Below are positions 8,148 through 53,721 of a DNA stretch of 56,784 nt, one piece after another. Source of the stretch: an uncultured Candidatus Saccharibacteria bacterium (lineage in GTDB: Bacteria; Patescibacteriota; Minisyncoccia; Sungbacterales; HO2-52-23); NCBI GenBank assembly GCA_964358425.1, contig CAYHON010000002.1, positions 9,350 to 66,133 on the forward strand, written 5' to 3'. Under the pieces are notes generated by a model that was given only the letters and a program-made list of their open reading frames with translations, did no database searches and was not told where the DNA came from. Made by a program: the position numbers and the translations under genes. The first letter of the stretch is position 1, and each line of letters begins with the position of its first letter.

Positions 8148-9770
8148 ATGAAAAGAAAAGAATATCTACTGCTCTTGCTGGTTATCGTCATAGGGGTCTT
8201 TTTCAGATTTAATCTTATAAAAGAAGTTCCTCTAGGGCTCTATCCGGACGAGGCGATGAACGGCAACAACGCGCTGGAAGCTTTGTCCACGGGTCCGCTG
8301 GCTGGCGGATTTAAGATGTTTTATCCGGAAAATAACGGACGGGAGGGTTTGTTTATAAATATCCAGGCGATTTCGGTGCGCATCTTCGGCAACCAGCCGT
8401 GGGCTTTGCGCGGAGTCAGCGCTTTGTTTGGCGTGCTTACTATCTGGGGATTATATCTTGTTACCCGGGAGCTTTTAAATAAATTTGGGAAGAAAGGCCA
8501 CTGGATTGCTTTACTTTCGTCCTTCTTTTTGGCAACTTCGTACTGGCATATCAACTTCTCCCGCATAGGTTTCAGGGCGATTATGGTTCCTTTTGCCGCT
8601 GTGTTTGCTTTGTATTTTTTGCTGGAGGGTTTCCGGACCGGCCGAACTTTAAGCCTAATTTTGGCAGGAGTTTTTATGGGAGTTGGGTTAAATACTTATA
8701 TCGCCTTTCGTTTTGTACCTTTTGTGATGGCAGTGCCGATTTTGTTTTATTTTCTGCCTCGCTGGAAAGAACATCAGACAAGAAAAGCGGTGATTATATT
8801 TTTGCTGGCTACGTTTATTGTGTCCTTGCCGATAGGGCTTTATTTTTTGAAAAATCCGGCTGATTTCTTGGGGCGCGGAGGACAGGTTTCGGTATTTGCG
8901 GCCTCTAGCCCCGCGCTTGAATTTGTCAAAACCAATGTTGTAACCCTTGGTATGTTTTTTGTGTATGGCGACTGCAACTGGCGCCACAACTACAACTGCC
9001 AGCCGGAGCTGAATCCCCTGGTTACTGTATTTTTTGCCATTGGGCTGTGGCTCGCCCTAAAAAATATTTTTAAGCCCAAATTGCTGGAAAGGCAGACGAG
9101 CGCGCTGCTGCTAGCCTGGATGTTTTTTATGTCTTTGCCGGCTACTCTCACCCGCGAAGGCCTGCCCCACGCTTTGCGTTCCATCGGCATGATACCCCCG
9201 ACAATGATTTTAGCGGGACTTGGCGCTTGGTATATTTTAAATATGGTTTTTCGGAGGCTTGAATGGAGCAAAGATAAATATGAAAATTACGGCAGGCAGA
9301 TTGAGAGGATAAAAAAGGAAGTTATGGTTTTGTTCTGTCTGGTGCTTTTGGCAATTCCGGTAATGACTTACCGAGATTATTTCCGCCGCTGGGCCTACAA
9401 CCCCGCGACATATTATGAATTCAACACCGATCTCCTGCATATCGGCCAGTATCTAAATAATTTGTCTCCGGACACTAAAAAATATGTAGTGGTCAACCGC
9501 GACTCGGGCGTAAAAGTATATGGCCTGCCCATGCCCGCGCAGACGGTGATGTATGCCACCAATACTTTCGTGGATGCGGAAAGAGAAAAGAAAAATTATG
9601 TCTATTTACTGCCGGATCAAATTGACCGGATTTCTATAGAGCCGGGCCGAAGAACGGTAGTATCTTTTTTGAAGGTAGAAGATTTAGAGTTCATAAAATC
9701 CGTGCAAAAAAAATACCCGGAGTTGCGCGTGAGCGTTCCGAGCGATTTTGTGGTTTTACAAGATTTTTAA
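8148..9770 (+). CDS. Glycosyltransferase family 39 / ArnT-like membrane glycosyltransferase
   Basis: Multi-TM protein with the N-terminal loop LYPDEAMNGNNA (the DE motif of GT-C enzymes). The start is set at the ATG MKRKEYLLL; the tracked ORF begins at TTG 8112. Confidence 0.75.
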   Translation: MKRKEYLLLLLVIVIGVFFRFNLIKEVPLGLYPDEAMNGNNALEALSTGPLAGGFKMFYPENNGREGLFINIQAISVRIFGNQPWALRGVSALFGVLTIWGLYLVTRELLNKFGKKGHWIALLSSFFLATSYWHINFSRIGFRAIMVPFAAVFALYFLLEGFRTGRTLSLILAGVFMGVGLNTYIAFRFVPFVMAVPILFYFLPRWKEHQTRKAVIIFLLATFIVSLPIGLYFLKNPADFLGRGGQVSVFAASSPALEFVKTNVVTLGMFFVYGDCNWRHNYNCQPELNPLVTVFFAIGLWLALKNIFKPKLLERQTSALLLAWMFFMSLPATLTREGLPHALRSIGMIPPTMILAGLGAWYILNMVFRRLEWSKDKYENYGRQIERIKKEVMVLFCLVLLAIPVMTYRDYFRRWAYNPATYYEFNTDLLHIGQYLNNLSPDTKKYVVVNRDSGVKVYGLPMPAQTVMYATNTFVDAEREKKNYVYLLPDQIDRISIEPGRRTVVSFLKVEDLEFIKSVQKKYPELRVSVPSDFVVLQDF

Positions 9771-11959: not shown

Positions 11960-12400
11960 TATATAGCGTCAAACTGGTCCGGCAAACCTGCGGGCAGAGT
12001 AAGCTCACCGACGACAGATACGGCTTACCGCGCAGTACCAGTTTGAGGGTGTGGGTCAGTCGGGGAAAACGGGACAGCGCCAAGATGGCGGCTTGCGTCA
12101 GAATAATTGGCGGAGCTAGGATGCCACCCCCGGCGAGGATCTCCGACCAGGAGAAGAGACTGACCCACTTTTTAAGCTCATTGAAATTGCCTCTTGTGTG
12201 TGGTCTGTAGACCAGTCACGGAGGCGGTAACCGAGGCACAGAACACCGGCCTCATAAGCCTGGACAACCCACCCTCGGTAGCGTGCTTAGCACGGGAACC
12301 AGAGGCAGAGCACGCTGCCGAGGCTATAATTCCTACTCCGACAGGTAAAACGAGCCCTTCTCCACGAGAAGGGCTCGCAATTTTTATAAAGATGTTTTGG
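11960..12400. ncRNA. Large GC-rich structured non-coding RNA candidate (class unknown)
   Basis: A roughly 530-nt gap between convergent genes has no credible ORF. Perfect long-range helices are TCAAACTGGT (11969-78)/ACCAGTTTGA (12037-46), with nested CTGCG/CGCAG and GTAAGC/GCTTAC. Further helices are GTGGGTCAGTC (12051-61)/GACTGACCCAC (12158-68), GGTC-tgta-GACC (12202-13) and CGGAG (12219)/CTCCG (12345). The region ends in a terminator hairpin. Confidence 0.5.
12352..12385. terminator. 11-bp terminator-like hairpin
   Basis: GAGCCCTTCTC-cac-GAGAAGGGCTC. It is followed by GCAATTTTTAT on the + strand and by GTTTTACC on the - strand. Confidence 0.6.
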
Positions 12401-20766: not shown

Positions 20767-20929
20767 AAGACTCTCTAAAACCCCTTTATTCTACTGCGAT
20801 TGTATAATTTCGGCTACGCTCTCGTCTGTCCTCGTCAGCGTATATTTCTCATATATGTTTTCCTCGTCCATCCTCGGCTCGCCCGAAATTCTGCAACCTC
20901 GCTACGAAACAGGGGTTTTAGAGAGTCTT
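20767..20929. repeat. 163-bp element with perfect 19-bp terminal inverted repeats (MITE/REP-like) between mreD and mrdA
   Basis: AAGACTCTCTAAAACCCCT (20767-85) pairs with AGGGGTTTTAGAGAGTCTT (20911-29). The inner part (20806-20890, AATTTCGGCTACG...CTCGCCCGAAATT) is homologous to the element at 53541-53634. Confidence 0.9.
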
Positions 20930-29578: not shown

Positions 29579-29800
29579 AGAAAAAATTTAAAACTAAAAA
29601 CGAAAAAGGAAAAGCAACAACTAAAAACTTAAAACACCTTAAATTATTATTTTACGCTTTTCGTTTTTAACTTTACGCTTATTATCATACCACTTCCTGC
29701 TGATAGCATTGCTCGTCCCCCGCCAATTCCGATTAAGACTCTTAAATAATAGGTGTTTATTCTCGCGGCAGCGCCTAGCGGCAGTTTTTGGTCTCGGGAT

Positions 29801-32325: not shown

Positions 32326-33597
32326 TTATTGCCAAGCTTCTACAACGCGGTTTAAGGCTCTTACATACGCCGCCAGGCGCCAAGATGTATTATATTTTGA
32401 TTTCGTTTCGGCTACTCCCCGGAAGGCTTCGGTCATCTGGGCGTCAATTTTTTCCAGGACTTCCTTTCCGCCCCAATATTTGCCTGATTTGGATTGTATC
32501 CATTCAAAATACGAGCCGACTACTCCCCCGCCGTTGGCCAAGATATCCGGGATTATTTCCACTCCTTTTTTCTCCAATATTTTATCCGCCTCATGGGAGA
32601 CGGGGCCATTGGCCAGCTCCAGAATAACTTTGGCTTTTATTTTATCCGCGTTTTTCTCCGTAATCTGGTTTTCCAGCGCGGCCGGTATCAAAATGTCCAC
32701 GGATAATTCCAGCAGCTCGTCATTGGAAATTTGCTGGCACAAAATACAGGCGTTTTTCTTGTCGCAATCCACCGCGTAACACTTGCCCTGGTCTATCAGG
32801 CCGGTTTTTTCCTTCTCGTCTATGATGCGATTGATGTCTATGCCGTCTGATTCCAGGAGTCCGCCTTTAGAATCGGATATGGCGATGACTTTAAAACCGC
32901 GCTCAAAAAGAAGCTTGGCGATATTGGAGCCCACATTACCGAAGCCCTGCACGGCGACATTTAGGGATGTAGGTTTTAGGTTATAGGTTATGGGGGATTT
33001 TTTTAGATATTCTCGGAGAGTCACGTATCCGCCGAAGCCGGTGGCAACTTCGCGACCCTGCGAACCCCCTTTTTCTATCGGTTTTCCGGTAAATACGGCT
33101 GGCTCCGAGTGACCGACAAGCTTGGAATATTCATCCGCCATCCAGTCCATCATTTGGGCGTTGGAGCCCACATCCGGCGCGGGAACGTCTTTATCCGGTC
33201 CGATATCTTGCCATATTTTTCGGACATAGCCGCGGCAAATCTGCTCAAGCTCTCTTTTACTCAAAGTGTGAGTATCGGCTTGCACGGCTCCCTTCCCTCC
33301 GCCGAAGGGCAGATTGACCACCGAAGTTTTCCAAGTCATTAAGGAGGCCAAAGCTTTTACCTCATCTAAATTAGAATCCGGATGAAAGCGAATACCGCCT
33401 TTATATGGCCCGAGTTTGTCGTTGTGCTGTACCCGCCAGCCGGGAAAATTTTTGGCGGAGCCGTCATCCATTTTGACGGATATTTCAAATTCTAAAACCT
33501 TATCAGGGGTTTCCAGTTTTACCAAAACATCCTTGGAAATACCAGCCAAGGATGCCGCTTCTTTTATAATTTCTTCGGTATTTTCTAGGAAGGACAT
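32326..33597 (-). CDS. gdhA: Glutamate dehydrogenase (Glu/Leu/Phe/Val dehydrogenase family)
   Basis: Motifs KGGIRFHP, the catalytic-Lys region PFGGGKGAV, and the NAD(P) fold VQGFGNVG. Confidence 0.9.
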   Translation of the reverse strand: MSFLENTEEIIKEAASLAGISKDVLVKLETPDKVLEFEISVKMDDGSAKNFPGWRVQHNDKLGPYKGGIRFHPDSNLDEVKALASLMTWKTSVVNLPFGGGKGAVQADTHTLSKRELEQICRGYVRKIWQDIGPDKDVPAPDVGSNAQMMDWMADEYSKLVGHSEPAVFTGKPIEKGGSQGREVATGFGGYVTLREYLKKSPITYNLKPTSLNVAVQGFGNVGSNIAKLLFERGFKVIAISDSKGGLLESDGIDINRIIDEKEKTGLIDQGKCYAVDCDKKNACILCQQISNDELLELSVDILIPAALENQITEKNADKIKAKVILELANGPVSHEADKILEKKGVEIIPDILANGGGVVGSYFEWIQSKSGKYWGGKEVLEKIDAQMTEAFRGVAETKSKYNTSWRLAAYVRALNRVVEAWQ

Positions 33598-39757: not shown

Positions 39758-41550
39758 TTATACAATCTCGCTATTGTAACAGCTTTCGCAGTATATTATC
39801 TCCTTTCTCTCGGGACTGTAAGAGGTCTCAAACTCGTTGGGACAGGATTGGTCGCTGTGAAAATGAGTAGTTTGGTTTTGATAAATTATTATTGATTCTT
39901 GATTCTGACTTCTGGATTCTTTCCCATTGCACATACATCTCCTCTTCCAGAGCTTCAGGGGATTCCTCTGCTTCAATCGTGAATAATGCCTACAGTTGGG
40001 ACAGAGTCTGGGTAAGGGCAGGTTCATCTTACGGTAGAACTCCAGCTCTTGAGGGATGATACGAAAAGCCGAGGTACATTGTTCGTTACAAGTACCTTGG
40101 TGGCTACAGCCTATGTTTTGGGTAAGAATAGAGTCATCTACGTCTTTGATATGGTCGGGGAGGGATTCGGGGGTCAGGTTTATGGTGTATTCTCTCTTTT
40201 CATCTTCTTTCCAAGTGTAGCCTTGAGCTATGGCTTCCTCCTTAGTCAGAGGGAAGTATTCTTGAGCTATGGTCTCATTGTAGGAGAAGGGAGAGAGTTC
40301 AGGAGGAAAGAACTCTCCATACCTGTATATCCTTCCTTTAGAGTCGGTGTAGGGCATAGAGTTCATATGCTCTATGATCTGGGATATCAGCTTCTCATAG
40401 TCTTCTTTGGAGTATTGGCGGTTGAGGATACAATAGGACTTATTGCGGAGGCCCACACAACCAAATAGATTGTTGGAGTTGTGGCAGTTGAAGGAGTATT
40501 CAACGTCGTGGCTTCTGTAAACAACTATGGTGAATTTTACTCTTGAACCGGATATACCCGAATCTACCGATTCATAAAGCAAATCCACTCCTCCACCAAC
40601 CCCATAGCCATCATAGGAGTCTTTCATACCCATACCCCCCCAGACGGCGTATTTAGAATCCTCTACCCCCACCACATCAAAACACTGATAACAATTTTTA
40701 GTATTGCCAACTATATCCCCCACTACATCCACGATTTTAAAAGAATACATATATTTTCTAGGGAAGTTTAGTATCGTCTGCCCATATGTTTCTTTTAATT
40801 CCGTTAGTTTTTTATAACTTCCCAGATCAAAATTTTTGATGGCTTTTTTATAATCTTCTTTGGAGTAAGGTTTATTAAAAATATAATAAGATTTATTTCT
40901 TAAGCCCGTACAACCGAAACAGTCCGAACAGTTTCGGCAGTCAAACAAAAAAGCCGAGTTACTACAGTCCTCGCAGCCAAAAGAAAATAAAATTTTATAT
41001 GATGTTCCAGAATTGACCGTCTCATAAGATAAGTCCAAGTGGTCAACTAAATATAAATCAGCCGAATCTTTGGAAGAAGCTACTCGGTTGGAATAAAGTA
41101 TGTTTTCACTTCGCCAAGCCGCAGAAATCAAAAAAAGAATTCTTGCTATCTTCGGCGTGGTTGGCGTAATCAGAGTTTACGGCGTTGGTGTTGAACAGGG
41201 CTATGGCTGGAGTATTTTTTAATAGTTCCCCGAACTGGATAAAAAATAATTTTTGGGGCTCATACTTCAAACCAAATTGAATCGGGTCCCATTGATCCGA
41301 CCACCAATATTTTTGGTCATATATCTTAGCATCTGCCCCGGGGTGATAGATAGAAATAACATCTTCCTGATGACCAGGAGCTCGGCATTTATTTTTTATA
41401 TAAAACTCGTTCATTGCGCCAGGCCATTCTTCTAACCATCCGACACTCCGGACACCACGTCGGCGGAGGGACTTTTATTTTGGAATAGAATTGCAGATCA
41501 TCATCAGTGACCTCAAATGAGTTTTTGCAGTTTTGGCACTCTTTGTTCAT
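39758..41550 (-). pseudogene. Cys-rich zinc-ribbon repeat protein gene split in three by two +1 frameshifts at homopolymers
   Basis: The pieces are 41389..41550 (MNKECQNCK...), 41106..about 41395 and 39758..about 41125. They read as one protein if one base is removed from A6 (coding strand, + strand 41392-97) and from T7 (+ strand 41130-36). The module FY.K...P.P..CP.CR occurs at both ends. The internal duplicate is C.NC.DCFGC.GLRNKSY.I.N..YSKEDY. Confidence 0.6.
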
Positions 41551-41559
41551 ATCTTCTCG

Positions 41560-41594
41560 CCCTCCCAAATTTTGCGTAGCAAAACTTGGGAGGG
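41560..41594 (-). promoter_or_regulatory. 16-bp hairpin sequestering the Shine-Dalgarno of the Cys-rich gene
   Basis: The mRNA reads CCCUCCCAAGUUUUGC-uac-GCAAAAUUUGGGAGGG, then 9 nt, then AUG (41550). The GGGAGGG SD is base-paired with a perfect anti-SD CCCUCCC. Confidence 0.6.
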
Positions 41595-41695
41595 TAAATA
41601 AAACAAAAAATCCTCGGGTTCTATTACAAACTCGTTTTGGCAATTCTGGCAGATTTTAGTTTCCGTATTCATTCTTAATTCTTGATTCTTGCTTC

Positions 41696-42493
41696 TTAAT
41701 TCTTTGGAGACATATGTATCAAATATTCTTTATTCCCCTTATCCCCGCGGATGGGCGACTCCATAGTATTTTTTATTTTCCAGCCGTTTGACTCGGCCCA
41801 CTTTTTAAAACCTTCCAGCAGATTTTCCCGGTCCTGATCGGTTTTTATAATTCCGTGATGCAAGAGGCTTTGGTCCCGGGTCTGATACTGGGGTTTGAAA
41901 AGGGCCACTACTTCTCCTTTGGGAGACAAGAATCTACGCACGGCCGGCAGGATGTTTTCCAAAGGAATCAAGGATACGTCAATCGTAACAAGGTCTACTT
42001 CTTCGGGCAACTTGCCCCCACACCATAACGGAGATCGCGTTTCGCGTGAATTCTTATTTATCTCCGTTTGGTGTGGGGGTGAATCCAAACTGCGCACATC
42101 GGTGTCCTCCATCACCACCACTTTGGGATTTTCCCTGATTTTAGGCGCCATTTTTCCGCGGGCCGTATCTATGGCGTATACTTTCTCGGCTTCGTGCAAA
42201 AGCAAAATTTCCGTAAAACCGCCGGTAGCCGAGCCAATATCGGCGCAAATTTTCCCGGTCGGATTTATTTCAAAATTTTTCAGCGCCGCTTCCAATTTCA
42301 AGGCTCCTCGGCCGACGTATTTGAACCGTCCGCGGAACTCTATTTTATCTTTTTCGCCTACCATTTGCGCCGGCGAGATGGCTTTATGGCCATTTAGAAA
42401 AACAGCGCCTTCGGTGACTTTCACGAAAGCGTCTGGTTTGTCTCGGACAAGTTTTTGCTCTATGAGAAACTCGTCTAACCGGCGTTTTTTCAT
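41696..42493 (-). CDS. tlyA: TlyA-family rRNA 2'-O-methyltransferase
   Basis: S4 domain (RLDEFLIEQKLV), FtsJ-like motif I DIGSATGGFTE, and VSLI. Confidence 0.85.
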   Translation of the reverse strand: MKKRRLDEFLIEQKLVRDKPDAFVKVTEGAVFLNGHKAISPAQMVGEKDKIEFRGRFKYVGRGALKLEAALKNFEINPTGKICADIGSATGGFTEILLLHEAEKVYAIDTARGKMAPKIRENPKVVVMEDTDVRSLDSPPHQTEINKNSRETRSPLWCGGKLPEEVDLVTIDVSLIPLENILPAVRRFLSPKGEVVALFKPQYQTRDQSLLHHGIIKTDQDRENLLEGFKKWAESNGWKIKNTMESPIRGDKGNKEYLIHMSPKN

Positions 42494-46326: not shown

Positions 46327-46388
46327 AAGTTAAAAGCTAAAAACTAAAAGTATAAAACTAAGGTATCGCTTCGCAATGTATTTATATT

Positions 46389-49953: not shown

Positions 49954-50036
49954 GTATAAGTGACATGTGACACGTGACTTGGAATTTTAGTTTGGTGTAT
50001 TTTCCTTGTCGCTTGTCACTTGTTACTTGTCACTGA
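49954..50036 (-). repeat. Heptad-repeat hairpin element, copy 1 (rplQ|rplM spacer)
   Basis: + strand: gtaTAAGTGACATGTGACACGTGACTTGGAATTTT...TTTTCCTTGTCGCTTGTCACTTGTTACTTGTCAC. It starts right after the rplM start codon complement and ends 2 nt before the rplQ stop. Confidence 0.9.
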
Positions 50037-50038
50037 TT

Positions 50039-50386
50039 CTATTTTACAAGCTCTATTACGGCCATCTTGGCGGAATCGGATTTTCGCTGTCCCAGCTTGG
50101 TGATGCGGGTATAACCTCCCTTGCGGTCGGCCTGTTTTTTACCCACCTCCAGTATTTTTTTGACCAGCTTAGCAGAGAACTGCGACCTTAGCAATCTTTG
50201 GCTGGACAAACTCATTTCCTTGGCTTTGGTTATAAATTTTTCCACGCGTGGGCGGAGTTCTTTGGCTTTGGCCTCGGTAGTGGTTATTTTCCCGAACAGA
50301 AAAAAGGCAGAAGCCAAGTCCCGCATAAGGGCCGATCTTTGCGCCGATTCTCGGCTAAATTTTCTGGGTTTTCGGAGATGCTTCAT
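50039..50386 (-). CDS. rplQ: 50S ribosomal protein L17
   Basis: MKHLRKPRKFSRESAQRSALMRDL....TT..KAKELR; GGYTRI.KLG.R..D.A. Confidence 0.9.
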   Translation of the reverse strand: MKHLRKPRKFSRESAQRSALMRDLASAFFLFGKITTTEAKAKELRPRVEKFITKAKEMSLSSQRLLRSQFSAKLVKKILEVGKKQADRKGGYTRITKLGQRKSDSAKMAVIELVK

Positions 50387-50387
50387 T

Positions 50388-51353
50388 TTACGGTTTTAAG
50401 ATTATGCCAAAGTTACCCAAAGCTTTCTTGATTTCATGTATTCCTTTTTCTCCCAGACCCTCTATTTCTTCCAGCGACTCAACTTTTTTACGAGAAAGCC
50501 CCCCGACGGTTTTTATGCCGGCTTCGCGCAAAGCGTTGAGGGTGCGGCTGGAAAACTTCAAAGTATCAAGTTTAATTTTGTTTGTATCTTCCTCGTCTGT
50601 ATTTTTTTCTTCGGTGGAAGTATCTTCCGCTCCGCGGACCTCGTGTTTTTTATCGGGCGCCTGTTCTTTGGCGGCAAAACCTTCGGCCAAGGCCGAAAAC
50701 TGGTCTACCAATATCTTGGCTGATCTTTGAAAAGCCTCCATCGGAGTCAGCGAGCCATCTGTTTCTATGTGAAATCTGACTTTGTTGTAATCGGTCTTGT
50801 CTCCAACGCGCATATTTTCCACTTCATAATTTACGTGTCTCACCGGGGAGAAAGCCGCATCCAGGGCAATGGTGCCCACCTCCACCTTTTCTTTGCTGCG
50901 GGCCTCCACCGGCACATAGCCCAGGCCGGCTTCCACCACCACCTCGATTTTAAACTTAGATTTTTTGGAAGTCAGGGTGGCGATATGCACCTCCGGGCTG
51001 ACCACCTCTACCTGGGAAGGGGTCTCGAAGTCGTCGCAGGTAACCTCTTTTTCTCCGCTGACGGAAAGCTCAATGGTATGGGGGCCGTCGTCGTTGAGCT
51101 TAAATCTGGCCTGTTTGAGGTTTAGGATTATATCAACCGCATTTTCCAGCACTCCTTCCAGAGTAGAAAATTCATGCCCCACCCCCTCTATTTTAACCGA
51201 GGTGATGGCCGCTCCTTTCAGCGAAGATAACAAAACCCGTCTCAAACTATTGCCGATAGTTTGGCCGTAACCGGGATAGAGGCCGTCCAATTCCAGAACG
51301 GCTTTGTTACCCTCGGAAGATATTATTTTAGGCATAACGGGCAAAGATATCAT
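50388..51353 (-). CDS. rpoA: DNA-directed RNA polymerase subunit alpha
   Basis: The N-terminal domain has GYGQTIGNSLRRVLLSS. The C-terminal domain has LKFSSRTLNALREAGIKTVGGL. Confidence 0.95.
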   Translation of the reverse strand: MISLPVMPKIISSEGNKAVLELDGLYPGYGQTIGNSLRRVLLSSLKGAAITSVKIEGVGHEFSTLEGVLENAVDIILNLKQARFKLNDDGPHTIELSVSGEKEVTCDDFETPSQVEVVSPEVHIATLTSKKSKFKIEVVVEAGLGYVPVEARSKEKVEVGTIALDAAFSPVRHVNYEVENMRVGDKTDYNKVRFHIETDGSLTPMEAFQRSAKILVDQFSALAEGFAAKEQAPDKKHEVRGAEDTSTEEKNTDEEDTNKIKLDTLKFSSRTLNALREAGIKTVGGLSRKKVESLEEIEGLGEKGIHEIKKALGNFGIILKP

Positions 51354-51379
51354 GATGATTTTTTATTAATAAAAATAAA

Positions 51380-51997
51380 TTAGCGAGAGAAGAATTCTTT
51401 TATTTTGGTTAGGTCGGCGGTTAATTCTCCGTCTTCTATTTCCGGAGAACCGGTTACTTGTCCTTCTTTTTTATTTTTATCCAGCGTAAGCCAGCGGGGT
51501 GATTCGTACTTTTTATATTTTGATTCCAAATCTTTAAAAATGGCCAGCCCGGAGGATTTTTCTTTCAGGGAAATCAAATCCCCTTTCTTGGCTTGGTAGG
51601 AAGATATGTTGACGGAGCGGCCGTTTACCCGGATATGCCCGTGGTTTACCAATTGCCGGGCAATGCGCCGGGAGTTGGCCAGGCCCAGGCGGAAAACTAC
51701 ATTGTCCAGTCTTGACTCCAGCAGTTTAAGCAAAACCGCATTAAAAACTCCTCTTTTGAAAACAGCTTTTTGGCTGTATGACTCCACTTCTTTATTGGTC
51801 AGGCCGTAAATAAATCTCACTTTTTGTTTTTCATGCAAAAGCTGGCCGAATTCCGAAGAAGCCCGCCGCCGGCTTTTACCGTGCACACCGGGGGCATAAC
51901 TTCGGCGCGTCAAAGCGCACTTGGGGCCCGAACAGCGGTCCCCTTTCAAAAAAAGTTTTTCTCCCAGCCGTCTTTCTGTTTTTTCTAATATCCTCAT
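51380..51997 (-). CDS. rpsD: 30S ribosomal protein S4
   Basis: Motifs EKQKVRFIYG, an S4 domain LESRLDNVVFRLG.A.SR..ARQLV.HGHI.VNG. Confidence 0.95.
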   Translation of the reverse strand: MRILEKTERRLGEKLFLKGDRCSGPKCALTRRSYAPGVHGKSRRRASSEFGQLLHEKQKVRFIYGLTNKEVESYSQKAVFKRGVFNAVLLKLLESRLDNVVFRLGLANSRRIARQLVNHGHIRVNGRSVNISSYQAKKGDLISLKEKSSGLAIFKDLESKYKKYESPRWLTLDKNKKEGQVTGSPEIEDGELTADLTKIKEFFSR

Positions 51998-52081
51998 ACA
52001 TAAGTGACAGGTGACATGGGACAGGTGACATGGAATCTTTTAATGCATTTCCTTGTCGCTTGTCGCTTGTCGCTTGTCGCT
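51998..52081 (-). repeat. Heptad-repeat hairpin element, copy 2 (rpsK|rpsD spacer)
   Basis: + strand: ACATAAGTGACAGGTGACATGGGACAGGTGACATGGAATCTTTTAATGCATTTCCTTGTCGCTTGTCGCTTGTCGCTTGTCGCT. Confidence 0.9.
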
Positions 52082-52084
52082 ATT

Positions 52085-52519
52085 TTATACCCGGCGCACT
52101 TTTTTGGGACGGGGTCCGTTGTGTGGCAGAGGGGTGACGTCTTTGATGGAGATAATCGTCAGACCCTGGTTGGCCAAAGCTCTGACTGCGGAATCTCGTC
52201 CGGAACCTACCCCGCTGACCCGTATCATTATTTCCTGCAGACCGGATTTTTTGGTTTTTTCAACCACCGTCTCAGCCACGCGGGCCGCCGCATATGGGGT
52301 TGCCTTTTTGGCTCCGGTAAATCCCAAAGATCCGGCTGAAGACCAGGCTAAAACTCCGCCTTGGTCGTCGGCGATGGATATAATGGTGTTGTTGTAAGTC
52401 GCCTGGATAAAGGCTATACCCCGGCTGGCTTTATGGCCCGCCTTAACTTCCGGCGCTTTTTTGACGTCGGTTTTGGAGGACTCACCTTCAGATTTTTGTA
52501 TTATTCTTTTCTTTCCCAT
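52085..52519 (-). CDS. rpsK: 30S ribosomal protein S11
   Basis: Core GIAFIQATYNNTIISIADDQGGVLAWSSAG..GF.G.KK.TPYAA. The start is set at MGKKRI; the tracked N-terminal extension MFLVTCHLY is translation of the repeat. Confidence 0.95.
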   Translation of the reverse strand: MGKKRIIQKSEGESSKTDVKKAPEVKAGHKASRGIAFIQATYNNTIISIADDQGGVLAWSSAGSLGFTGAKKATPYAAARVAETVVEKTKKSGLQEIMIRVSGVGSGRDSAVRALANQGLTIISIKDVTPLPHNGPRPKKVRRV

Positions 52520-52594
52520 ATATAAGTGACATGTGACAAGAAACATGTGACATGGAATTTTTAATTTATCCTTGTCGCTTGTTACTTGTCGCTA
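52520..52594 (-). repeat. Heptad-repeat hairpin element, copy 3 (rpsM|rpsK spacer)
   Basis: + strand: ATATAAGTGACATGTGACAAGAAACATGTGACATGGAATTTTTAATTTATCCTTGTCGCTTGTTACTTGTCGCT. Confidence 0.9.
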
Positions 52595-52597
52595 ATT

Positions 52598-52984
52598 CTA
52601 AGTTGGGCTTGAGGACGGTTTTCGGCCTGATCCCATAGTTTTTCTGGTATTTCCCCGGCGGGTGCGGGAATTGGTCTTGGTTCTTTGACCGCGGACAGGC
52701 AGTCCTCTCATGTGCCGGGTGCCGCGATAAATGGACAGCTCTTTTAATCTTTTGATGTTGGTCATAATCTCCCGGCGCAAATCTCCTTCTATCTTATAAT
52801 TTTTTTCTATAATCTCTCTTATCCGGTTTACTTCCTGGGCCGACAAGTCTTTGGTCCTTTTATCCGGATCCACCTGGGCTATCTTTAAAATCTTACGCGC
52901 GGACGTCAAACCCACGCCATATATATATGGAAGAGAATATTCTATCTTTTTGCTGTCCGGAATGTTTATACCTACAATGCGCAT
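52598..52984 (-). CDS. rpsM: 30S ribosomal protein S13
   Basis: MRIVGINIP...YIYGVG...[21 protein letters not shown]. The start is set at MRIVGI; the tracked extension MSHVTCHLC is translation of the repeat. Confidence 0.95.
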
Positions 52985-53066
52985 GCATAAGTGACATGTT
53001 ACATGTGACACGTGACATGGAATTTTTAATTTATCCTCGTCGCTTGTTACTTGTTACTTGTCGCTA
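52985..53066 (-). repeat. Heptad-repeat hairpin element, copy 4 (rpmJ|rpsM spacer)
   Basis: + strand: GCATAAGTGACATGTTACATGTGACACGTGACATGGAATTTTTAATTTATCCTCGTCGCTTGTTACTTGTTACTTGTCGCT. Confidence 0.9.
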
Positions 53067-53069
53067 ATT

Positions 53070-53186
53070 TTATCCTTGTCTTTGTTTATGTTTGGGATCA
53101 GATTTACATATAACGAATAGCCGACGTTTCCGCCGGACTACCTTGCATTTCGCGCAACGAGCCTTTACAGAAGCTTGAACTTTCAT
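53070..53186 (-). CDS. rpmJ: 50S ribosomal protein L36
   Basis: My own translation is [38 protein letters not shown]. It is too short for the ORF track. Confidence 0.9.
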
Positions 53187-53275
53187 ACATAAGTGACATG
53201 TGACATGTGACATGTGACATGGAATTTTTTAATGCATTTCCCCTTGTCACTTGTCACTTGTTACTTGTCGCTGGT
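53187..53275 (-). repeat. Heptad-repeat hairpin element, copy 5 (infA|rpmJ spacer)
   Basis: + strand: ACATAAGTGACATGTGACATGTGACATGTGACATGGAATTTTTTAATGCATTTCCCCTTGTCACTTGTCACTTGTTACTTGTCGCT. This is the most regular copy, with 4 heptads per arm. Confidence 0.9.
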
Positions 53276-53492: not shown

Positions 53493-53540
53493 TGGTTGTT
53501 TAGACGAGGTCATCTGTAAACTCTTTTTCGTAATGAGGTT

Positions 53541-53634
53541 GCTCAATTTCGAGCGAGGCGAGGAAAGACGACGAAGGTGTATATAAACCTATATACACCA
53601 AGGAGGAGTAACGATGCCGCAGCCGAAATTGAGC
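53541..53634. repeat. Hairpin element homologous to the core of the 20767-20929 element
   Basis: GCTCAATTTCG (53541-51) pairs with CGAAATTGAGC (53624-34), with inner GGTGTATATA-aacc-TATATACACC. The reverse complement AATTTCGGCTGCGG...TCCTCGCCTCGCTCGAAATT aligns with 20806-20890 (AATTTCGGCTACGC...TCCTCGGCTCGCCCGAAATT). Confidence 0.8.
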
Positions 53635-53721
53635 AAATGTAATAGAAAAGTGAGTTTAGAGATGACCTCAACAGGATAGCAAAACCGGCAGGAGATGTCA
53701 ATCTGCCCAGTCTTTTAACGA

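Follow-up and report, generated by a model that had tools for sequence, protein, structure and literature searches.

The 56,784-nt stretch of DNA analysed here (the window) comes from an uncultured groundwater bacterium of the Candidate Phyla Radiation (CPR) that resembles Sungbacteria and, judged from S4 homologues, has few close relatives. Its ribosomal-protein operon, read on the minus (mRNA-sense) strand, carries five paralogous hairpin elements whose arms are tandem arrays of 7-nt units. Each element is probably a copy of a small insertional palindromic repeat, comparable to repetitive extragenic palindromes (REP), miniature transposable elements with inverted repeats (MITE) and Rickettsia palindromic elements (RPE), built from heptad arrays and kept where it is harmless. 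The fixed stop-hairpin-start geometry leaves room, at a clearly lower likelihood, for the element to have been co-opted for translational coupling or for presenting the start codon.

The gene order on the minus strand is infA-rpmJ-rpsM-rpsK-rpsD-rpoA-rplQ-rplM-rpsI, according to Pfam assignments in which L13 was confirmed. The elements, 69-81 nt long with a GC content of 33-46%, lie one per spacer in infA/rpmJ, rpmJ/rpsM, rpsM/rpsK, rpsK/rpsD and rplQ/rplM. The original prediction had placed five copies in these spacers, filling nearly the whole distance from stop to start codon, and this was confirmed by the coordinates, by Tandem Repeats Finder, by a repeat finder and by a covariance model. 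The five copies were found to be 64-89% identical to each other in the direct-repeat finder alignment. The pattern ATGTCACATGTCAC, with up to 3 mismatches allowed, was matched 29 times against 1.3 expected, and all but one stray match fell within the five spacers. A family covariance model, run with filters off over the 56.8-kb window, recovered only the five copies (E 1e-15 to 1e-23), with the next-best match at E 0.33. Hainich groundwater assemblies were compared with the window, and three independently assembled contigs were found to be 99.7-100% identical, with zero indels and one single-nucleotide polymorphism, in a loop, within the elements. The five-copy observation is therefore real and not an assembly artefact.

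In the mRNA sense, the elements follow the plan A, (GCGACAA/GTGACAA/GTAACAA)x3-4, GGAA, an A/T-rich loop of 5-17 nt, TTCC, ([A/G/C]TGTCAC)x3-4, T. The unit consensus is GYRACAA in the 5' arm and VTGTCAC in the 3' arm, and the core has the form AG[C/T]GAC...GTCACT. Period-7 arrays were reported by Tandem Repeats Finder in 10/10 arms, with 2.7-4.3 copies in each, and the unit count is nearly constant at about 4+4. The terminal A...T and the inner GGAA/TTCC stem are common to all copies. Copies 1 and 4 share one loop with a copy located in a RecG helicase gene (described below), and copies 2 and 3 share another. Because arms and loop subfamilies are shared in this way, the copies descend from whole-element copying and not from convergence. 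In 5/5 copies the core begins 3-4 nt past the stop codon and stops 5 nt short of the start codon, in agreement with the earlier claim that the real AUG follows closely on the stem foot. The spacers and the parts of each copy, all on the minus strand, are as follows.

53276-53187, minus strand: spacer c1, infA/rpmJ, 90 nt
53192..53272, minus strand: copy 1 core, infA/rpmJ; covariance model 101.6 bits
53272-53244, minus strand: copy 1 5' arm, A + GCGACAA GTAACAA GTGACAA GTGACAA
53243-53221, minus strand: copy 1 inner stem and loop, GGGGAAATGCATTAAAAAATTCC
53220-53192, minus strand: copy 1 3' arm, (ATGTCAC)x4 + T
Copy 1 flanks: AACC (stop side, following TAA), TATGT (start side, ahead of the ATG at 53186)
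53069-52985, minus strand: spacer c2, rpmJ/rpsM, 85 nt
52990..53065, minus strand: copy 2 core, rpmJ/rpsM; 93.5 bits
53065-53037, minus strand: copy 2 5' arm
53036-53019, minus strand: copy 2 loop, GGATAAATTAAAAATTCC
53018-52990, minus strand: copy 2 3' arm
Copy 2 flanks: AATT (stop side), TATGC (start side)
52597-52520, minus strand: spacer c3, rpsM/rpsK, 78 nt
52525..52593, minus strand: copy 3 core, rpsM/rpsK; 78.4 bits
52593-52572, minus strand: copy 3 5' arm, 3 units
52571-52554, minus strand: copy 3 loop, identical to the copy 2 loop
52553-52525, minus strand: copy 3 3' arm, including one degenerate unit, ATGTTTC
Copy 3 flanks: AATT (stop side), TATAT (start side)
52084-51998, minus strand: spacer c4, rpsK/rpsD, 87 nt
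52003..52081, minus strand: copy 4 core, rpsK/rpsD; 100.9 bits
52081-52053, minus strand: copy 4 5' arm, (GCGACAA)x4
52052-52032, minus strand: copy 4 loop, GGAAATGCATTAAAAGATTCC; subfamily of copy 1 and the RecG copy
52031-52003, minus strand: copy 4 3' arm
Copy 4 flanks: AAT (stop side), TATGT (start side)
50038-49954, minus strand: spacer c5, rplQ/rplM, 85 nt
49959..50034, minus strand: copy 5 core, rplQ/rplM; 71.7 bits
50034-50006, minus strand: copy 5 5' arm
50005-49981, minus strand: copy 5 loop, 25 nt, divergent
49980-49959, minus strand: copy 5 3' arm, 3 units
Copy 5 flanks: AATC (stop side), TATAC (start side)

Because 7 is coprime with 3, the units pass through all reading frames. 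Every frame of the 3' arm contains AUG or GUG triplets, and in 4/5 copies stops in three frames in the 5' half are followed by starts in three frames in the 3' arm. The false N-terminal extensions ascribed from the outset to these buried AUGs are present in the list of open reading frames (ORFs), as MSHVTCHLC for rpmJ and rpsM and as MFLVTCHLY for rpsK. The real N-termini were inferred from the typical N-termini of L36, S13 and S11 and from 128-aa homologues, giving the following decoys.

53184..53213, minus strand: decoy start of rpmJ, an in-frame ATG inside the 3' arm; real ATG 53186-53184
GTG at 53011, minus strand: decoy start of rpsM; real ATG 52984
ATG at 52546, minus strand: decoy start of rpsK; real ATG 52519

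Copies outside the operon and turnover at its junctions

Metagenome contigs were scanned with a pattern of loop plus 3' arm, which returned the source operon and three further contigs (L129, L137 and L133). L129, from the same sample and with the same coverage, contains a complete 4+4 copy with the loop type of copies 1 and 4, in frame in a RecG helicase gene. There the insert adds about 26 aa between motif II (DEQHRFGV) and motif III (SATPIPRT), and alignment with T. maritima RecG (1GM5) showed a 21-residue gap opposite it. L137, from another Hainich well, contains a 4+4 copy that reaches from a response-regulator gene's stop codon (TAA) up to the start of the next, pilT-like gene, and in L133, a JGI metagenome contig, a copy ending TTTT-ATG precedes an ATG. 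The orientation relative to the gene is the same in 8/8 oriented copies. Of the six or seven copies detected in Hainich assemblies, five lie within one 3.3-kb operon. When the element peptides ATSDKRQ and MSHVTCH were used to look for in-frame insertions elsewhere, the only matches were spurious: short ORFs, on short contigs, that cover heptad arrays. Because copies lie in RecG and in a response-regulator/pilT-like spacer, the family is not specific to the ribosomal operon or to translation genes. The specificity for translation genes that was originally proposed is thus not upheld, and the in-frame RecG copy has no relation to a gene start, an occurrence that the same proposal had named as counting against it.

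The occupants of the operon junctions differ among relatives. Contigs L150-152 (S13 86%) carry orthologues of copies 2 and 3, with the 5-nt distance kept and with flanks that differ from those of the window (CATGT, ACCAG). They have no copies 1 and 4, the infA/rpmJ spacer being 24 nt and the rpsK/rpsD spacer 6 nt, as in L151 where the window has copy 4. L149 (S13 91%) has a 5-nt infA/rpmJ spacer and no copy 1, a decayed orthologue of copy 2 with a 5' arm of 2 units, and a different hairpin after rpsM. In L153 (S13 96%), rpsM is flanked on either side by heptad hairpins of unrelated sequence, of the AAATCCT/AGGATTT type and the AAAACTA type, and L126 (S4 68% identical) has short spacers and no elements. 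Where orthologous copies are present, the stop and start distances are kept despite other flanks (CATGT, ACCAG, TTAAG). Hairpin families of their own were found at the same junctions in L125, L143, L145/146 and L147, often as two paralogous copies per operon, and the unrelated hairpins of L125, L143, L145, L147 and L153 extend over these junctions, beginning close to the stop and ending close to the start. L143 has a third copy of its AAATCCT/AGGATTT family in the murA/mreB spacer (8159-8296). Because the occupant varies among relatives while the position recurs, the junction is a hot spot with changing, appearing and decaying occupants, which is the behaviour of an insertional repeat and not of a conserved operator or leader. 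Among the four roles initially offered, that of a mobile element is the one supported, by the RecG copy, the copy between non-translation genes and the variable presence in relatives, and that of a shared operator was weakened by replacement in near relatives.

The decoy starts recur in protein sets. S13 homologues annotated with 137-139 aa (P0242, P0245, P0262) carry the extensions MLLVTSHFK, MSLATCYSC and MLHGRMLHVTC. Those of P0242 and P0245, encoded on L149 and L150-152, are translated heptad 3' arms, and that of P0262, judged from the peptide alone, is probably heptad-derived as well.

Two further genes of one relative were also recorded. In L147 (Sungiibacteriota CP066690), a gene with a GIY-YIG domain (12097-12369) lies between rplQ and rplM, which is the junction of copy 5, and a bAvd/23S_rRNA_IVP-type gene lies within the upstream ABC-transporter operon.

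Absence from the rest of the 57 kb, as first claimed, holds for this family by the covariance model and fails for heptad arrays and palindromes generally, other window junctions holding other arrays or palindromes of these kinds. Two palindromes of about 165 nt (53506-53669 and 20767-20929), with arms of 46-47 nt that are 78-79% complementary, are related to each other (85% identity over 39 nt, in opposite orientation). The first fills the spacer just upstream of infA and so makes a sixth operon junction with a palindrome, of a different family. A hairpin of AAAAACT/AGTTTTT-type heptads at 29589-29675, with 37-nt arms that are 73% complementary, precedes a transketolase-like gene; its gene-sense 3' arm is a 7.9-unit array (29582-29635) ending a few nucleotides from the ATG (29578). 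In the window's murA/mreB spacer (46327-46388), an array of AGTTTTN heptads, with a GCGAAGC mini-hairpin, extends to the ATG of mreB, and its partner arm appears to reach into the murA 3' end. An in-frame 21-nt (ATAACCT)x3 array within a Glu/Leu (glutamate) dehydrogenase gene (about 32960-32995) encodes ...PITYNLKPT..., directly before the GFGNVG NAD-binding motif. Arrays of AAGAATY heptads occur at 41671-41704, from the 3' end of an FtsJ-like gene to the next ATG, and at 39888-39921, near the 3' end of a 457-aa ORF without a Pfam match.

Hairpin formation, translation and rival explanations

If the elements are insertional repeats, their spread would take place at the level of DNA, through insertion or copying. 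In a compact genome poor in Shine-Dalgarno (SD) motifs, copies would survive only where the harm is small, such as between the stop and start of co-transcribed genes, or alternatively in a tolerant protein loop if the copy is stop-free and has a length that is a multiple of three. The element would be co-transcribed with the operon, and its imperfect mRNA hairpin would loop out about 80 nt, leaving the stop 3-4 nt before the stem foot and the start 5 nt after it. Translational coupling could thereby be preserved and the upstream decoy AUGs buried. The mobilisation step is hypothetical.

Several observations weigh against an insertional repeat. No consistent target-site duplication or conserved target was found by eye in the flanks of 11 copies, TTA...TTA being present only at copies 2 and 3, and no candidate transposase, parent insertion sequence (IS) with matching ends or Y1 transposase was seen within the 57-kb window. 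The clustering of most Hainich copies in a single operon needs local copying or selective retention. Exact distances to stop and start, kept in orthologues with differing flanks, are not what random insertion into short spacers predicts. The uniform gene-relative orientation counts on the same side, as does the stable number of about 4+4 units, which is unlike that of a slippage-prone or decaying repeat.

The mRNA-sense copies were predicted to fold at -21.3 to -29.9 kcal/mol (z -2.3 to -4.6) and the plus-strand (antisense) copies at -27.6 to -48.1 kcal/mol (z -4.8 to -8.7), the antisense strand being more stable by 6-22 kcal/mol (-48.1 versus -26.3 kcal/mol for copy 4). The arms had been described as complementary except at every seventh position, forming an mRNA stem of about 30 bp with phased A.A mismatches. 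The phased mismatch was borne out, as A.A or as A.G / A.C. However, the stem is poorer than claimed, most heptads having one more mismatch (C.A or A.C) where the GCG/GTA variants of the 5' arm stand opposite CAC of the 3' arm. In the mRNA sense, the arms of eight members (the five window copies with L129, L137 and L133) were found to form 159 Watson-Crick pairs, 3 G.U pairs and 56 mismatches. The C.A/A.C positions of the sense strand become G.U wobbles on the plus strand: the plus strand has G.U at 21 of the 24 transition-type non-Watson-Crick positions, the sense strand at only 3. Over 11 family members, paired cells make up 83.5% on the plus strand versus 76.6% on the sense strand. Covariation, a check suggested with the original prediction, was not above shuffle controls on either strand in pair counts from 11 sequences only. 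The predicted stem is long enough for a putative RNase III site (at least about 20 bp).

An SD-like motif was found at most 20 nt upstream in about 10/55 long ORFs of the window; most starts are preceded by A/T-rich sequence, and 49/55 ORFs lie on the minus strand. None of the five element-preceded genes has such a motif. The reported absence at these genes therefore stands, and the reported contrast with other genes does not: because about 80% of window ORFs are without the motif, its absence at the five genes is the genomic norm and the contrast is uninformative. As a separate observation, a hairpin at 41560-41594, CCCTCCCAA...TTGGGAGGG, pairs an anti-SD-like arm with an SD-like arm. A similar hairpin lies in the rpsD/rpoA spacer of L124 (about 520-560; S4 94% identical), unlike the rpsD/rpoA junction of the window, which is a plain 26-nt spacer.

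The alternative that survives best, possible although distinctly less likely than insertion and tolerance, is a selected cis-acting mRNA device. The hairpin would hand the terminating ribosome to the AUG by termination-reinitiation resembling shunting, or would serve as an RNase III-type processing site, possibly as a co-opted mobile repeat. The stem foot at -6 would occupy the usual place of the SD/anti-SD helix, and the decoy AUGs would stay buried. Such a device is favoured by the invariant geometry at five sites and in orthologues with differing flanks, by the unrelated hairpins that span the same junctions in relatives, by the uniform orientation, by the scarcity of SD motifs in the genome and by the stops and starts in all three frames of most copies. 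A precedent is offered by the TAACTGA heptamer repeats of Beggiatoaceae, which adjoin and precede SD-less starts, including those in ribosomal-protein operons (S4, L3, S1) (MacGregor 2015, PMC4679880). Against it, relatives with S13 at 86-91% manage without copies 1 and 4 on spacers of 5-24 nt and L126 has no elements at all, one element lies inside RecG where coupling or processing is irrelevant, and any palindromic insert resembles a "bridging hairpin" by construction. The mRNA-structure roles put forward earlier (processing, start presentation, coupling) are possible ones that the strictly conserved spacing favours; the lack of covariation above shuffles, the weaker sense hairpin with about two mismatches per heptad and the decayed 5' arm in L149 argue against a strongly selected mRNA structure.

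A broader form of this idea, which is doubtful and more so than the device itself, takes heptad-periodic palindromes as cross-phylum, frame-independent "stop-restart" couplers, recruited repeatedly to ribosomal-protein junctions in compact SD-poor genomes. The 5' arm would offer TGA/TAA and the 3' arm AUG in all frames, and the hairpin would bring stop and start within about 10 nt. By the same doubtful account, the terminating ribosome would skip some 80 nt and start again 5 nt beyond the foot, with the stem replacing the SD helix, and interchangeable families would keep synthesis stoichiometric.

A function of the plus strand, as a terminator of antisense transcription or as a single-stranded DNA form for an enzyme of HUH/Y1 type (IS200/IS605-like or RAYT-like), is unlikely. 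The more stable folds, the G.U positions and the higher paired fraction of this strand speak for it, as do the partly U-rich tails such as GGUUUUAUUU that follow the plus-strand stem and the lack of target duplication, which is also the case with IS200/IS605 and REP. However, the asymmetry may stem from one master copy or from mutational bias, the counts not being independent events. No antisense promoter is evident, the elements, with loops longer than 8 nt, were not called in a consensus scan for intrinsic terminators, no Y1 transposase was seen in the window, and the flanks have no conserved tetranucleotide of the REP/IS608 type.

Two further explanations carry very little probability. The first takes the elements as 7-bp iteron or operator arrays at the DNA level, bound by a regulator of the operon. 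The inverted arrays of about four tandem 7-bp units each have the right form, and heptad protein-binding sites exist in some promoters, e.g. TTTTGAT at ctxAB. However, unrelated heptads occupy the same junctions in the relative with 96% identical S13, RecG and unrelated operons contain copies as well, the sites lie within the operon and not at a promoter, and no candidate binding protein was found. The second, just as hard to credit, is de novo microsatellite growth, in which slippage would expand 7-nt seeds in each spacer and template switching would make the palindromes, with no whole-element transfer. Period 7 dominates the tandem repeats of the window (Tandem Repeats Finder), solitary in-frame (GCGACAA)3-4 arrays occur in other CPR genes, and among long simple-sequence repeats of prokaryotes, heptanucleotides are reported to be the most frequent (Mrazek 2007, as cited in PMC4679880). 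This is countered by the near-fixed unit number, by the terminal A...T and inner stem present in all copies, and by non-repetitive loops common to distant copies (copies 1 and 4 with RecG; copies 2 and 3 with L150), which demonstrate the copying of whole elements.

Known repeat families and a wider superfamily

Rfam, searched at gathering threshold over the window and 18 related loci, matched only tRNA and SRP RNA, and none of these on any copy. In E-value mode, the region gave only sub-threshold plus-strand matches to miRNA precursors (generic long hairpins) and Alpha_RBS. The latter (RF00140, the S4-binding alpha-operon leader) scored 17.1 bits at the rpsM start against a gathering threshold of 38 (E 0.88) and was rejected. 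A CRISPR array was likewise rejected, the "spacers" being ribosomal-protein genes and the repeats being hairpins with variable loops. The element had at first been described as unrecognised among REP or bacterial interspersed mosaic elements (BIME), ribosomal-protein leaders and CRISPR repeats. A literature search for the repeat sequences found no paper containing them in the library searched. A Tn5 artefact was also considered, the copy 5 foot TGTCACTTATACA agreeing at 12/13 positions with the Tn5 mosaic end. It was dismissed on base-for-base agreement of three assemblies, orthologous copies in other studies and differing feet in the other four copies.

REP/BIME and the MITE families (ERIC, Correia, RUP, BOX, SPRITE) resemble the elements as dispersed non-coding hairpin repeats in operon spacers; they are co-transcribed, affect mRNA in an orientation-dependent way and have hot spots at which related strains carry different families. 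MITE-like terminal inverted repeats of about 22-29 nt are present (AG[C/T]GACAAG... / ...[ACG]TGTCACT), here without target duplication. However, a REP is a GC-rich palindrome of 20-40 nt with a GTAG head, whereas the elements here, with the length and low GC content given above, have no such head. Unlike both REP and MITE, their arms are periodic heptads with phased mismatches, and no cognate transposase or RAYT was identified in the 57-kb window.

According to Ogata et al. (2000), as summarised in PMC10969869, RPE are small repeats found in frame in unrelated genes. The likeness to the present family lies in the reduced genome, the intergenic copies and the in-frame insertion into a housekeeping gene with a tolerated peptide (here RecG). 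RPE differ in being about 100-150 bp long, in having no 7-nt tandem units, in their restriction to Rickettsia and in their conserved peptides, whereas one in-frame case was seen here and most copies carry stops. The comparison is one of form. TAACTGA repeats occur in marine Beggiatoaceae, Cyanobacteria and Bacteroidetes, with a patchy cross-phylum distribution and occasionally in frame within ORFs, and in Orange Guaymas 'Maribeggiatoa' (BOGUAY), 169 direct sets were counted versus one indirect (PMC4679880). Like these repeats and the cyanobacterial short tandemly repeated repetitive (STRR) sequences or heptanucleotide long simple-sequence repeats, the elements consist of tandem 7-nt units ending a few nucleotides from an SD-less start. 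However, the arrays are direct there, whereas here the units, GYRACAA and VTGTCAC, differ from each other, are quasi-complementary and stand in inverted arrays on either side of a conserved loop, in a discrete element. Phage T7's intercistronic RNase III sites, and coupling of translation through mRNA structure in bacterial operons, resemble the elements in form only, as a long imperfect stem at the boundary between cistrons of a polycistronic mRNA, with no similarity in sequence or by Rfam. The element departs in a defining feature from MITE (no target duplication), from REP (size, composition and the missing GTAG head) and from TAACTGA/STRR (another unit, inverted arrangement). If it is indeed an insertional repeat, it would represent an undescribed family of palindromic repeats with heptanucleotide-array arms, with RPE, TAACTGA repeats and REP/MITE as the closest precedents.

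A scan of a genome collection with three 5'-arm units found at least 120 loci in many phyla. Among the matches listed, CPR genomes were observed to contain solitary (GCGACAA)3-4 arrays in frame inside genes, encoding the peptide ATSDKRQ..., at the following places.

L071 1325-1360: in-frame (GCGACAA)x3-4 array, Liptonbacteria
L033 about 1763-1790: in-frame (GCGACAA)x3-4 array, Yanofskybacteria
L064 about 682-705: in-frame (GCGACAA)x3-4 array, Saccharibacteria

The host genes, read from the translated sequence, are presumably those of ValRS, IleRS and PNPase. Also among the matches listed, Pyrinomonadaceae, Blastocatellia, a Clostridia-labelled genome bin and others have near-perfect (GTGACAA)n-loop-(TTGTCAC)n hairpins, and the covariance model found more than 45 such hairpins, often two per 8-kb locus. 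The superfamily is dispersed in Acidobacteria, other phyla and viral contigs. In one viral-classed contig (L217 4653-13173; IMG/VR 3300037043_000420), five hairpins of the form (GTGACGR)n...(YYGTCAC)n occur within 14 kb, and every one of them fills a spacer between co-directional genes. The window family differs from the superfamily in that its 3' unit starts with A, G or C rather than T and its 5' unit often begins GCG. In a crude ORF-distance scan of 120 loci, many hairpins seemed to lie 3-6 nt past a stop, although array boundaries are imprecise and the scan was not used quantitatively.

What would the family mean for CPR genomes?

If the elements are insertional palindromic repeats, they would link two classes that are usually treated apart, heptamer simple-sequence repeats and palindromes of the REP/MITE/RPE type, in a repeat whose close relatives are scattered across bacteria of several phyla and also occur in some viral contigs. 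Colonisation by such repeats would then extend even to the densely packed ribosomal-protein operons of CPR bacteria and to their housekeeping proteins. For annotation, the AUG-rich 3' arm is a warning, as it places false N-terminal extensions on L36, S13 and S11, here and in public protein sets, and the repeat family thereby causes systematic miscalls of start codons, such as those in the 137-aa S13 homologues beginning MLLVTSHFK and MSLATCYSC. Finally, the invariant spacing of stop codon, hairpin and start codon provides a concrete hypothesis of SD-independent translational coupling.

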